A stretch of DNA of 12,987 nt from Candidatus Micrarchaeia archaeon (GCA_038870455.1 JAWCPB010000030.1:1-12987), one strand, 5' to 3'. Shown: positions 6 through 7,300, numbered from the stretch's first letter. Notes: generated by a model not told the origin, from the letters alone. A program made the numbers and translations.

Positions 6-923
6 GTGGACCGGTTCGGTGGCTTCTTTCTTCCTTTCGCGCTCGCGCTGGCAACCGCCCTCGCTGCGTGGATAGCCCAGACAGCCGCAGCTTACTGGGC
101 TTACAGGCGAATCATCTACCCTGAGATAAGACGCAACCCGCTCGCCAACTACCTGATAGGATGGGTCGCCATCGCCACGCACGAATTAGGCCACGCAGTT
201 GTGGCTGCTGTCACGGGCTCTAAGATAGAAGAGGTGGAGATAACCACCACGAGGGGGCATGTCAAGAGCATAACTGAGGTGAGCCTGCTTGGCTGGCTCT
301 CGCTCGCCCTCTCTTCGCTCGCTCCCACTTTCCTGCCACCCTTGCTTTTCCTCGCCGCGTTTTATTACGCGTTTCCCGGCGCGCTTGAGCTCAACTGGAC
401 GACGCTCGAGGACATCGCGAACGCGAATGCCTCAAACATAATCACAATTTCATCTTCTCTGGCAGACCTCGCAAATCCCATCTCGCTCGCCCTTCTCTAT
501 TTCCTCATCGTGCTCGCGCCCACGGCAGGCCCGAGCGCGGGCGATGTCAGGAATGTGCTGGAGCAGACGGTGAGGAGGCCTTTCGCGCTGCTCGTGCTGC
601 TCGTAGTCCTCGCCGTGCTGTTCTATACATTCGAGGCGCTCAACTTTCCCGTGACAAACCCCATAATATGGGCGCTCACGCTTTCTTTCCTGGTTGTGCT
701 GCTTGGACTCGCGCTCGCAACCGCGCTCGCGCTCTACCTGAGGGAAGCGCGGAGCATGCCCGGCTGGGGGGTGGCGGCCTCGCTGCTCGCCTTCGCCCTA
801 TCCTACGCGGCCGCGCGCCTCGGCCTGATTCCCGAGTTCGCCGAGCCCGCGAGGGCGCTCGCGCTTGCCGCGCTGGTTGAAGTTCTCGTGCTGCTCGTAC
901 TCCCGAAAGAAAGGAGGTTTTGA
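6..923 (+). CDS. M50/M50B-like intramembrane zinc metallopeptidase (multi-pass membrane protein; may begin upstream of the window)
   Basis: HELGH (HExxH) motif at 180-194 next to a hydrophobic helix, followed by TGSKIEEV..GHV, LAP and a later PSAGD candidate third zinc ligand. Many TM-like segments. The frame is open to the window edge, so the start is uncertain. Confidence 0.75.
   Translation: MDRFGGFFLPFALALATALAAWIAQTAAAYWAYRRIIYPEIRRNPLANYLIGWVAIATHELGHAVVAAVTGSKIEEVEITTTRGHVKSITEVSLLGWLSLALSSLAPTFLPPLLFLAAFYYAFPGALELNWTTLEDIANANASNIITISSSLADLANPISLALLYFLIVLAPTAGPSAGDVRNVLEQTVRRPFALLVLLVVLAVLFYTFEALNFPVTNPIIWALTLSFLVVLLGLALATALALYLREARSMPGWGVAASLLAFALSYAAARLGLIPEFAEPARALALAALVEVLVLLVLPKERRF
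807..881 (+). repeat. 75-bp exact direct repeat, copy 1 (inside the M50 gene 3' end); begins with the 12-mer GCGGCCGCGCGC
   Basis: Base-by-base identical to 2535-2609. Confidence 0.97.
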
Positions 924-982
924 CTCAGCGCTCGCCAGTGGAAATATACGCTATCGTTGCATGTTCGCTGCGGAATTAAACA

Positions 983-1019
983 ATAAAGTTTAAACTATAA
1001 TATTTATAAAGTTTAGACT
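983..1019 (+). promoter_or_regulatory. Archaeal promoter of the ATPase gene: TATA box TTTATAAA (1003-1010) flanked by two ATAAAGTTTARACT repeats (putative operators)
   Basis: AT-rich island. ATAAAGTTTAAACT at 983-996 and ATAAAGTTTAGACT at 1006-1019, 23 bp apart. The core AGTTTAAACT (987-996) is a perfect palindrome. The ATG at 1033 lies about 23 nt after the TATA box, typical of a leaderless transcript. Confidence 0.7.
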
Positions 1020-1032
1020 TATTAAAAAAAGC

Positions 1033-3726: not shown

Positions 3727-3957
3727 ATGAACATTAATCTGAAGCTATCCGGTATTGTAGAGCGTGTTATTGAGGACATGATTGCCAGGGGGTATGCCGC
3801 GAGCAAGACTGAAGCGATTCGAATCGCTCTTTTGGATTACCTGCACCATCACTTAATGAGAGAGGGGGAGAGAATGAGCGAGGAGGACATTCAGGATCTC
3901 GAGCAGGCCATTCGCGAATACAAAGCGGGCAAGACTGTTTCTCTTGAGGAAGTCTGA
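3727..3957 (+). CDS. Ribbon-helix-helix antitoxin (CopG/RelB/ParD-like)
   Basis: MNINLKL beta strand, G.AASKTEAIRIAL RHH helix and acidic C-terminus ending KAGKTVSLEEV. TGATG overlap with the toxin. ATG 3727 is preferred over 3712, which is too close to the TATA box. Confidence 0.85.
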   Translation: MNINLKLSGIVERVIEDMIARGYAASKTEAIRIALLDYLHHHLMREGERMSEEDIQDLEQAIREYKAGKTVSLEEV

Positions 3958-4214
3958 TGCGCGAGATTCGCTTGGCGCAGAAGGCAGCCAAATTCCTGAA
4001 AAGCCTTCCTGAAGACTACCGGAATGCGCTCAAGCAGCGCATCTGGTTGCTTGCAAACGAGCTGGTGCCGCGCGGCTCAATCCGCCTTCAAGGCCGCGGA
4101 AACTGCTTCAGGATGAGAGTCGGGCCCTTCCGCATCCAATACTTTTTCATGGAAGAAGAAAACGTCGTGCTCGTCTATAAAATCAGCAGAAGAAATGAAA
4201 CGACGTACAGGTAA
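3957..4214 (+). CDS. relE: RelE/ParE-family type II toxin
   Basis: 85 aa, basic. A.KFLKSL....R, L.G...FRMRVGPFRIQY, VLVYKI.RR...Y. Confidence 0.9.
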   Translation: MREIRLAQKAAKFLKSLPEDYRNALKQRIWLLANELVPRGSIRLQGRGNCFRMRVGPFRIQYFFMEEENVVLVYKISRRNETTYR

Positions 4215-4321
4215 AGATTAGCCAAACCTCGGGCCAAAATTGAACGCTTCGGGTTTTACGCAATTCCGCAGCAGCTTTGCCCATTCATCAGTTAAGTATT
4301 TGTTATCTTTTGATTAACAGG

Positions 4322-7300
4322 TCAGTAAAACTCGCTCACGGGCTGCACCGTCAGCTCATGCGCCTTTGCGGCCTTGAGGGCTTCAACGAGCGCCCTGGCC
4401 GCCTCTATCCTCGTTATGACGGGCACGTTGTTCTCGAGGGCGGCGCGTCTTATTTTGTAGCCGTCAGTGAAGTATCTTCCACCCAGCTTTGGGGTGTTGA
4501 CCACGAGCTTGATGCGGCCGCGCGCGAGCTCGCTGACGATGTTGGGCTCGCCCTCAGCAATTTTGCGGAGAATGTGCGGCTTGAAGGAAAAAGCGCGGGC
4601 GGTGCCGTCGGTCGCGAAAATGTCGTAGCCGAGCGAGGCGAGCTCGGAGGCGATGGCCGCGGCCTCCTCCTTATCCTCATCCTTGACAGAGATGGCCACG
4701 CCGCCTTTGAGGGGCAGGTTGTGGTTGGCGCCCAGCAGGGCCTTGTAGAACGCGCGGCCGAAGTCTCTGTCAATGCCCATGCTCTCGCCCGTGGATTTCA
4801 TCTCAGGCCCCAGCACGATGTCGGTGCCGGGAAGCTTGAGGAAAGGAAACACCACGCTCTTGACAGCAAAGTAGGGAAGGCGGGGGGTTTCGGTAAGGCC
4901 CATCTCCTTCAGCGAGTGGCCGAGGAGAACGCGCGTGGCGACTTTTGCGAGCGGAATGCCTGTTGCCTTGGAGAGATAGGGGATGGTGCGCGAGGCGCGC
5001 GGGTTGGCCTCGAGCACATATACCTTGCCATCCTGTACGGCGTACTGGATGTTGATGGCGCCGATGTTCTCAAGAGCGCTGGCGATTTTGTTGGAGTAAT
5101 TGATGATGGTTTTCTGCACATCCTCGCTGAGGCTGATAGGGGGCGTCACGCAGCTGGCATCGCCGGAGTGCACGCCCGCCTTTTCGATGTGCTCCATGAT
5201 GCCGCCGATGAAAAGGCGCTCCTTGTCCGAAACGCCGTCAATCTCCACTTCCTTGGCGTTTTCGATGAACTTGTCGATGAGCACGGGCCTGCGCTCGCTC
5301 ACCTCAACCGCTTCAGCAATGTAGCGCGCCAAGTGCTCCTTGTTGTGAACGATCTCCATGCCCCTGCCCGCGATGACGTAGGAAGGGCGCACGACAACGG
5401 GATAGCCTACCGACTCGGCGACATCGAAGGCCTCGTCCTCGTTCGTGGCCGTGCCGTTGCGCGGCTGGGGAATGCCCAGCTCGTGCAGGAGCTTGCGGAA
5501 GCGCTCCCTGTCCTCGGCAATGTCTATGCCGCGGATGCCTGTGCCCAGGATGGGCGCGCCAGCCTCGTGCAGGGGGATGGCGAGGTTGATGCTCGTCTGG
5601 CCGCCGAACTGCACAATAACGCCGTCGGGCTCCTCGCGCTCAATGACGTTCGCCACATCCTCGAAAGTCAGGGGCTCAAAGTAAAGCTTGTCGCTGGCAT
5701 CGAAGTCAGTCGAGACCGTCTCGGGGTTGTTGTTTATCATAATGCTCTGCACGCCTGCCTCGCGGAGCGCGAAGGAGGCGTGGCAGCAGCAGTAGTCGAA
5801 CTCGATGCCCTGGCCGATGCGGATGGGGCCCGAGCCGATGACGATGACTTTCTTGAGCTTCAGTGGATTGGCCTCGTCCTCAAACTCGTAGGTTGAATAA
5901 TAATAGGGCGTGGCGGCTGCAAACTCGGCCGCGCACGTGTCCACCATCTTATAGACCGGTCTAATGTCCTGCTTTTTTCTTTCCCTGCGAATTTCCACCT
6001 CCGTATTTGCGGTCAGCTCGGAGATGCGCGAGTCGCTGAAGCCCGCGCGCTTGGCTTCGAGGAGGAGGGGGCGGTTTAAAGGCTCGAGTTTGAGGCGCTG
6101 TTCCATCAGCACGATGTTCTGCATTTTTTTGATGAACCACGGGTTGATGTGGGTGAGCGAGGCGATGCGATCAACAGGCCAGCCCTGCCTCAATGCCTCG
6201 AGGATGGCGTATAGGCGACGGTCGGTGGGATGCACGAGGAGCTCTTCAATTTCCTCGGGCTTGACTTCGGTCATGCGGCGGCGGACTTCGACAGAGCGAA
6301 TGGCTTTGTTCAATGATTCCTCAAAAGTCCTGCCGATGGCCATGACTTCGCCCGTGCTCTTCATCTGCGTGCCGATGTGGCGGTCGCTCTCCGGCATCTT
6401 GTCGAAAGGCCAGCGGGGAATCTTGACAACGACATAGTCGAGCGCGGGCTCGAAAGAGGCGGGCGTCTTTTTCGTCACCGCATTGGGTATTTCGTGAAGC
6501 GCATAGCCGAGCGCAACCTTGGCCGCCACGCGCGCGATTGGGTAGCCCGTGGCTTTGGAGGCGAGCGCGGAGGAGCGCGAGAGGCGCGGGTTCACTTCAA
6601 TGACATAGTACTCGCCCGTCTGCTGGTTGAGCGCGAATTGGATGTTGCAGCCGCCATTGATGCCGAGCGCGCGTATGATTTTGATGCTGGCCGAGCGCAG
6701 GCGCTGGTAGTCATCGTCGCTGAGAGTCTGGGAGGGCGCGACGACGATGCTCTCGCCCGTGTGGATGCCCATGGGATCGATGTTCTCCATGTTGCAGATG
6801 GTGATGCAGTTGTCGTATGCATCGCGCATCACCTCGTACTCGATTTCGCCCCAGCCGATGACGCTCTCTTCAACGAGCACCTGGCCGATGCGGGACATGG
6901 CGAGGCCGAGCTTCATGAACTGACGCAGCTCCTTCTCGTTGTGCGCGATGCCCCCGCCCGTGCCCCCGAGCGTGTAGGCAGGGCGGAGAACAAACGGGTA
7001 ATTGTGGGAGCGGGCGAACTCAAGCGCCTCTTCGATGCTGGTGGCCGCGACGCTGTCGAGGCACGGCTCGTTAATGCGCTTCATCAGGGCGGCAAACTTT
7101 TCCCTGTTCTCAGCTTCTTCAATGGCATCAACGCCCGTGCCGAGCACTTCGACGCCGTATTTTTCCAGCACGCCGAGCTCGCGCAGCTGCACGGCGAGGT
7201 TGAGGGCCGTCTGGCCGCCCATAGTGGCGATGAGGCCCTGGGGCGTCTCGCGGGAAATTATTCTCTCGAGGAACTCCGGGCGGAGGGGCTCGATATAGAC

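Follow-up and report, generated by a model that had tools for sequence, protein, structure and literature searches.

Join points of tandem duplications in bacterial gene amplification lie at short repeats, the product being head-to-tail segments with a short word at both ends. In Escherichia coli, a screen aimed at homology-facilitated illegitimate recombination recovered mostly single-crossover insertions (56 of 60 clones); sequencing of 14 clones showed duplications of 109-950 bp (PMC3240628). At type VI secretion system (T6SS) effector-immunity, Rhs and contact-dependent inhibition (CDI) loci, incoming modules displace the older module and the 3' end of the old gene downstream (PMC5361080), replacement flexible genomic islands exchange cargo by flanking homologous recombination and accumulate divergence at their borders (PMC4033161), and core defence hotspots have no tie to a class of mobile element (PMC10250203). 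Against this background we analysed a stretch of 12,987 nt (the window), one contig of Candidatus Micrarchaeia archaeon, in which the interval between an M50-like membrane protein gene and carB, a gene facing it, carries two blocks of accessory genes (cargo) in tandem.

We consider it reasonably probable that two diverged alleles of the M50-carB interval have been set in tandem here, forming a chromosomal scar joined at a short word that both genes share. Both blocks have the same layout, M50 tail, cargo and inward-facing carB tail, as an earlier note on this DNA, made from the sequence alone, had described. Block 1 consists of M50 tail 1 (807-923), a gene for an ATPase and an orphan carB remnant (2475-2546), and block 2 consists of M50 tail 2 (2535-2657), a bPH_2 gene, a PSI-domain fragment, an antitoxin-like gene, a RelE/ParE toxin gene and the tail of carB itself (4322-4525). 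Neither flanking gene is disrupted within the window: the reading frame of the M50-like gene runs uninterrupted to its stop, and carB matched the NCBIfam PRK05294 equivalog at 1576.7 bits over positions 1-1046 of 1058.

The word in question, the 12-mer GCGGCCGCGCGC, occurs in exactly three copies, all on the plus strand (807-818, 2535-2546 and 4514-4525), and a scan of the window allowing one mismatch returned zero additional matches. Shuffled sequences gave an expectation of 0.83, with three matches reached in 9 of 200 shuffles. The copies are the inner edges of two longer repeats and hence are not independent: 807-905 pairs with 2535-2633 (99 nt, 93% identity, spacing 1728), and 2509-2546 pairs with 4488-4525 (38 nt, 95% identity, spacing 1979). 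By blastn, 807-881 equals 2535-2609 at 100% over 75 nt (E 5e-39), 4476-4525 resembles 2496-2546 at 94% over 51 columns, and 4326-4344 equals 2479-2497 at 100% over 19 nt. The switch in homology falls exactly within the middle 12-mer, as had been claimed, with carB and not M50 homology to the left of 2535 and M50 and not carB homology to the right of 2546.

Set beside the systems above, the locus resembles a Campbell-type insertion in that the insert lies between direct repeats of the homology region with no site-specific enzyme, the repeats here being 75 nt identical within 99 nt at 93% and spaced by 1728 nt. It differs in the origin of the presumed circle, which would be no plasmid but the product of two chromosomal genes of a donor recombining at a 12-nt word. 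In homology-facilitated illegitimate recombination, likewise, foreign DNA is added beside a homologous anchor and the other end is joined without homology, according to the passages cited (PMC3240628; PMC5361080); the counterparts here would be the all-G/C 12-nt join and an anchor in M50 (about 800 nt) or carB (3 kb). That process is known in competent bacteria and E. coli conjugation, where some recipient DNA is usually lost, whereas here none was lost and 75-117 nt were duplicated. The T6SS, Rhs and CDI arrays share with the locus stacked cargo, orphan gene ends and the lack of an integrase; unlike it, they extend from a single polymorphic toxin gene whose 5' part is constant, while here two unrelated, facing, housekeeping-type genes are involved and a single stacking step. 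Flexible islands and defence hotspots also hold cargo between conserved genes, and the rise in divergence over the last 39 nt of M50 fits the border effect, but there one allele replaces another, whereas here both alleles are present, added together. The event thus works by known logic, that of single-crossover insertion, homology-facilitated illegitimate recombination and orphan-module arrays, and is a new example, not a new kind of system.

Comparison of the two M50 tails supplied evidence for two alleles. Tails 1 and 2 differ at 0 of 75 nt and then at 15 of 39 nt (38%; Fisher p 1.2e-8). The diverged part keeps its frame, and its 13 distal codons comprise five identical, three synonymous and five conservative replacements (V/T, V/I, K/R, E/K and R/K). 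Tail 2 is two codons longer; its stop (2655-2657) overlaps the opening codon of the bPH_2 frame, a TTG at 2654. Between tail 1 and the ATPase gene lies a spacer of 109 nt (GC 0.33), in which a TATA-like box precedes the ATPase start, so that each tail fits its own cargo. The tails resemble two alleles and not an old copy and a decayed one, in line with the proposal made earlier. The two cargos have nothing in common, the best tblastx match between them having an E value of 0.017.

The divergence profile of the tails and the lack of cargo similarity disfavour a plain duplication in place. The duplication account holds that, in a single lineage, the whole segment from M50 tail to carB tail was doubled by unequal exchange at the 12-mers, after which came reciprocal cargo loss, drift of the orphan tails and gene conversion over the first 75 nt. 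It would explain the head-to-tail repeats, a joint at a short word that recurs at either end of the segment, the decay of the orphan carB tail and the core-like composition of both cargos. It has to accommodate, however, an abrupt rise in divergence across which frame and residue character are kept, a block 2 that bears no trace of the ATPase, a block 1 that bears no trace of bPH_2, PSI or the toxin-antitoxin pair, and losses that spared both the overlap of the tail 2 stop with the bPH_2 start and the promoter spacer after tail 1, which is intact. Unlike duplications joined at short repeats, moreover, the segments here carry wholly different cargo and M50 tail ends that differ at 38% of positions. 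We regard this explanation as unlikely, and its ranking in the earlier note as the weaker alternative was sound, given the jump in tail divergence, the dissimilar cargos and the fit of tail to cargo.

The orphan carB remnant bears on whether the joint exists outside the assembly. It spans 72 nt, against 204 nt (4322-4525) in the real gene, and differs from it by a 133-nt deletion (about 4345-4477), a 1-nt insertion and four substitutions, a state that the earlier note had not mentioned. Two of the four substitutions change TAC to TAT and the stop TGA to the stop TAA. The indels sum to -132 nt, and the remnant reads in frame to its stop, ending in NTPKAVWKPVSEFY; this may be chance, with an expectation of about one in three. 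We infer from the deletion, insertion and substitutions that the orphan tail has decayed since the join. Such indels would be impossible in a working carB, and therefore the joint predates, and is independent of, the assembly. A 116-aa antisense frame at 2475-2825 that spans the remnant has no start and no family match; this frame and a second antisense frame over the joint (2489-3298, again with no family match) were judged chance frames of GC-rich DNA.

The same observations bear on the explanation that the tandem form exists in the assembly only. On this account, a chromosome with a simple allele (M50 tail 2, then bPH_2 through to carB) and a second molecule (a 1,728-nt circle, say) or strain, carrying the ATPase block with the joint of carB remnant and M50, were threaded together across the 75-nt repeat. 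At 12,987 nt the contig is short and of metagenome type, its lineage has no close genome, its repeats are identical over 75 nt, a length that may fall short of the assembly word or lie near it, and threading would yield the very sequence that integration does. Given its deletion, insertion and substitutions, however, the joint between carB remnant and M50 would still have to be real in some molecule, and a 1.7-kb circle with the ATPase as its one gene would have no recognisable replication function. If the assembly word exceeded 75 nt, the integrated joints would be directly supported. An artefact of this kind strikes us as improbable, to about the same degree as duplication in place.

The ATPase of block 1 matched Pfam DUF234 (E 1.6e-19) and ATPase_2 (E 8.9e-17), and the PADLOC models for PDC-S27 (E 2.6e-37 and 1.5e-36), its architecture being ATPase_2 + DUF234. 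A published listing of PD-(D/E)XK superfamily members includes DUF234 (PMC3424549), and the protein is predicted to be an AAA-type ATPase fused to a PD-(D/E)XK-type domain. According to the passage cited, PDC-S27 is an archaea-enriched candidate family, and most such candidates await validation (PMC12988326). The description of the cargo as defence-type, which the earlier note had offered, draws on the PDC-S27 match and the toxin-antitoxin pair, and is qualified by the candidate standing of that family; as a prediction, the label is fair but unproven.

In a word-based protein search, the best non-self match to the ATPase had 58% identity among the 120 matches listed. Relatives were found in 167 plasmid records, all below 60% identity, with the 12 listed at about 31-34% and mostly from haloarchaea, and in seven records of a phage collection at 25-31%. 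An origin of the ATPase in a mobile element was considered and set aside, these plasmid and phage relatives being too distant to bear on the present copy.

The boxes TTTATAAA (1003-1010) and TTTTATATA (3688-3696) lie about 20-30 nt 5' of the ATPase and antitoxin starts in AT-rich spacers, which suggests putative archaeal-type promoters and leaderless or near-leaderless messages. Scans of the window for bacterial signals showed no enrichment, either for sigma-70-type promoters (one site against 1.2 expected) or for terminators (8 sites against 5.0 expected, sd 2.3).

The first gene of block 2, bPH_2, may instead start at a GTG (GVG-type, 2675) or an ATG (2702), and a word-based protein search with its product returned itself alone. 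The PSI frame scored 23.1 bits, exactly the Pfam cut-off, has a C-terminal hydrophobic anchor and is open from stop to stop without a usable start codon; it is probably the 3' part of a 5'-truncated gene for a secreted protein. The antitoxin-like protein matched RHH_1 (E 0.011) and VapB (E 0.017), both under cut-off. Its stop overlaps the start of the toxin gene by 1 nt, and the toxin matched Pfam ParE_toxin at 26.7 bits (cut-off 23) and a PHROG RelE-like family at E 2.1e-9. G+C at third codon positions (GC3) was 0.77 for the ATPase and 0.79 for bPH_2, within the 0.73-0.81 of the core genes, as expected for a closely related donor. The toxin-antitoxin genes, at 0.56 and 0.69, were the lowest of the interval and below the core genes, which hints that the pair may have a separate, more foreign origin inside block 2.

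The M50-like protein matched Pfam Peptidase_M50B at E 1.4e-4 and 22.1 bits, and it has an HELGH motif. The M50 label is weak, since the score lies under the cut-off of 26 bits; only 1 of 10 relatives of the protein reaches that cut-off. A word-based protein search returned three matches including itself, the others being P0002 (77% identity) and P0003 (59%). The family is very small: when 1.84 billion representatives were searched exhaustively with HMMER, 29 clusters reached E<=1e-3, and the next best of these had 39% identity.

We then considered what the 12-mer represents. It is all G/C, and it is the sole 12-nt direct word, and the longest, common to the M50-like gene and carB. Codon shuffles of both whole genes gave a longest common word of at least 12 nt in 354 of 1000 cases, and the same test restricted to both gene tails did so in 9 of 1000, so that such a word is rare there. 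Two relatives of the M50-like protein replace the AAAR codons of the 12-mer by LSAR and LLAR, ARGR stands at the 12-mer position in 0 of 71 aligned carB homologues, and among 80 carB loci the word occurs somewhere in five and inside carB itself in none. A structured site was rejected as a candidate, the 60-nt DNA folds around the three copies scoring z = 0.03, 0.45 and -0.54 against shuffles. The earlier description of the 12-mer as a site thus does not hold, its length being within chance for the whole genes, its sequence unconserved in relatives and its surroundings without a fold. Most simply read, an illegitimate recombination would have exploited the best microhomology on offer.

No integrase or transposase domain was detected in 14 main frames of the 13-kb window with Pfam or in six frames with PHROGs, which agrees with the absence of a recombinase reported before, and no tRNA or Rfam family was found in the window. 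Islands at gene 3' ends usually show direct repeats and a restored, diverged end of the target gene. A further account takes the 1,728-nt block for what is left of an integrase-driven island at the 3' end of the M50-like gene, with the 75-nt repeats as attachment sites, tail 1 as an imported gene end and the integrase lost or acting in trans. It would suit the identical direct repeats flanking an insert that restores the target gene end with diverged sequence, yet is very unlikely given the lack of integrase, transposase and tRNA, a right edge formed by a carB tail whose fusion point is a word also present in carB (unlike the product of a site-specific enzyme), a block of one gene alone and an attachment site that the LSAR and LLAR of M50 relatives, the carB homologues without ARGR and the carB genes without the word mark as unconserved.

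Having weighed these alternatives, we return to the tandem-allele reading and the steps it would entail. Allele one would have been M50 tail 1, then a promoter and the ATPase gene, facing carB; allele two would have been M50 tail 2 overlapping bPH_2, then the PSI remnant and the toxin-antitoxin pair, facing carB. One illegitimate recombination would have joined carB of one allele to M50 of the other at the GC-rich 12-mer, and the other join would have come from ordinary homologous recombination in the flanking gene. The net gain would be 1,728 nt, made up of an M50 tail, the ATPase gene together with a promoter of its own, and the carB tail remnant, with identical 75-nt repeats at its flanks; M50 and carB would have remained whole, and the orphan carB tail would have decayed afterwards through the 133-nt deletion and the 1-nt insertion. 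A second lineage as donor is inferred here, and so would be any order of block arrival, which the sequence does not fix because the structure is symmetrical in that respect.

Three routes would give an identical product, and the sequence alone does not separate them. Route (a), in which a circle was excised at the 12-mers of the donor and inserted by a single crossover, is possible but somewhat doubtful. The other candidates are route (b), in which linear donor DNA is anchored by its homology to M50 or carB and its far end undergoes an illegitimate join at the 12-mer, and route (c), in which two co-resident chromosomes with different alleles undergo one unequal exchange at the 12-mers. Experiments provide precedents for both (a) and (b) (PMC3240628). 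Route (a) is the one that the earlier note had put forward, with entry by crossover in the 75-bp stretch. Part of that interpretation stands, namely the joint at a word present in both parent genes, the intact flanks, the two-allele tails, the absence of shared cargo and the absence of a recombinase; the 12-mer as a dedicated site does not hold, and a single crossover would not by itself account for the 75 identical bases. After a Campbell-type insertion, any comparison of the two copies sets donor against recipient sequence throughout, and therefore either the alleles were already identical over these bases or gene conversion followed. Pre-existing identity over the 75 bases would be preferred by a crossover.

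The M50-carB interval was also compared with other genomes. A scan of genome contigs with carB, in a collection holding one genome per species, kept 80 loci at 45-64% identity. A FastTree phylogeny of 71 rows, from which 10 of the 80 loci were dropped for want of one high-scoring segment pair of at least 950 aa, showed the window branching deeply and by itself, its carB being no more than 60% identical to that of any aligned genome. Sampling of the lineage is very poor.

Several points weigh against two stacked alleles. A scan of genome contigs with the M50 alignment gave 39 pattern matches, of which none was confirmed; none of the 80 carB loci had relatives of M50, the ATPase, bPH_2, PSI, the antitoxin or the toxin; and neither genome scan found a single-cargo allele in a related genome. 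The comparison of the distal tails covers 39 nt alone, and part of the changes in the carB remnant may reflect decay after the join and not allelic difference. The 75 identical bases require an extra assumption in every two-allele route: at 5.6% divergence, the level of the carB remnant (4 of 71 nt), a stretch of 63 identical bases should arise in only about 3% of cases. The linkage of both blocks in one molecule rests on the assembled sequence of this one contig.

Table 1. Coordinates of the M50-carB interval and its features, in nt from the first base of the window.
Feature	Position	Strand	Remarks
M50B-like membrane protein gene, HExxH motif	3..923	+	5' end cut by window edge; ends with tail 1
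12-mer copy 1, in M50-like gene, codons A A A R	807..818	+	
Left 75-nt direct repeat, identical to 2535-2609	807..881	+	Tail 1 in full is 807-923
AT-rich spacer, GC 0.33, with TTTATAAA box	924..1032	+	109 nt; box about 25-30 nt 5' of ATPase ATG
Cargo 1: ATPase_2 + DUF234 protein	1033..2463	+	Pfam, PADLOC PDC-S27
Orphan carB 3' remnant (RGRIKLVFNTPKAVWKPVSEFY, then stop)	2475..2546	-	Similarity to 4322-4525
12-mer copy 2, joint from carB to M50 homology	2535..2546	+	
Orphan M50 tail 2, without own start codon	2535..2657	+	Stop 2655-2657
Cargo 2a: bPH_2 membrane protein	2654..3283	+	Pfam bPH_2 E 1.1e-14
Cargo 2b: Cys-rich PSI-domain frame	3316..3669	+	Pfam PSI 23.1 bits
Cargo 2c: antitoxin-like small protein	3712..3957	+	Weak ribbon-helix-helix match
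Cargo 2d: RelE/ParE-family toxin	3957..4214	+	Pfam ParE_toxin, PHROG RelE-like
carB, 1055 aa, full length	4322..7489	-	NCBIfam PRK05294; 12-mer copy 3 at 4514-4525 (minus-strand codons A R G R)

Past carB, Pfam identified an ornithine/aspartate carbamoyltransferase gene, carA, argH and citG. The genes carA, OTCase-type carbamoyltransferase and carB lie in this order at 4322-9565, all on the minus strand; the carA and OTCase frames as listed overlap by 116 nt (8459-8574), and the OTCase start therefore probably lies further in. At 11985-12986 (minus strand), a 333-aa frame cut at the window end has G+C 0.50 and GC3 0.62, below its neighbours, and gave zero matches in Pfam, NCBIfam and PHROG. 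No extra stacked remnants of the M50 or carB tails or of either cargo were found in the rest of the window.

A more ambitious extension, which we hold decidedly improbable, would make the ATPase block a recombinase-free mini-island that forms a circle through chance intragenic microhomology and enters related chromosomes by the gene tails it carries, so that convergent core-gene pairs of an archaeal-like lineage would serve as recurrent capture sites at which candidate defence genes pile up. For the locus itself, the 75-nt repeats predict that the ATPase block could pop out by homologous recombination, leaving M50 with tail 2 coupled to bPH_2. Read as stacked alleles, the scar would record, base by base, how one accessory gene, promoter included, came to lie between two chromosomal genes that stayed intact, with no visible mobile-element machinery, and the gene so captured is a member of a candidate defence family common in archaea. 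If real and reversible, the arrangement would be a clean natural case of additive gene capture by homologous and illegitimate recombination in a very poorly sampled lineage.

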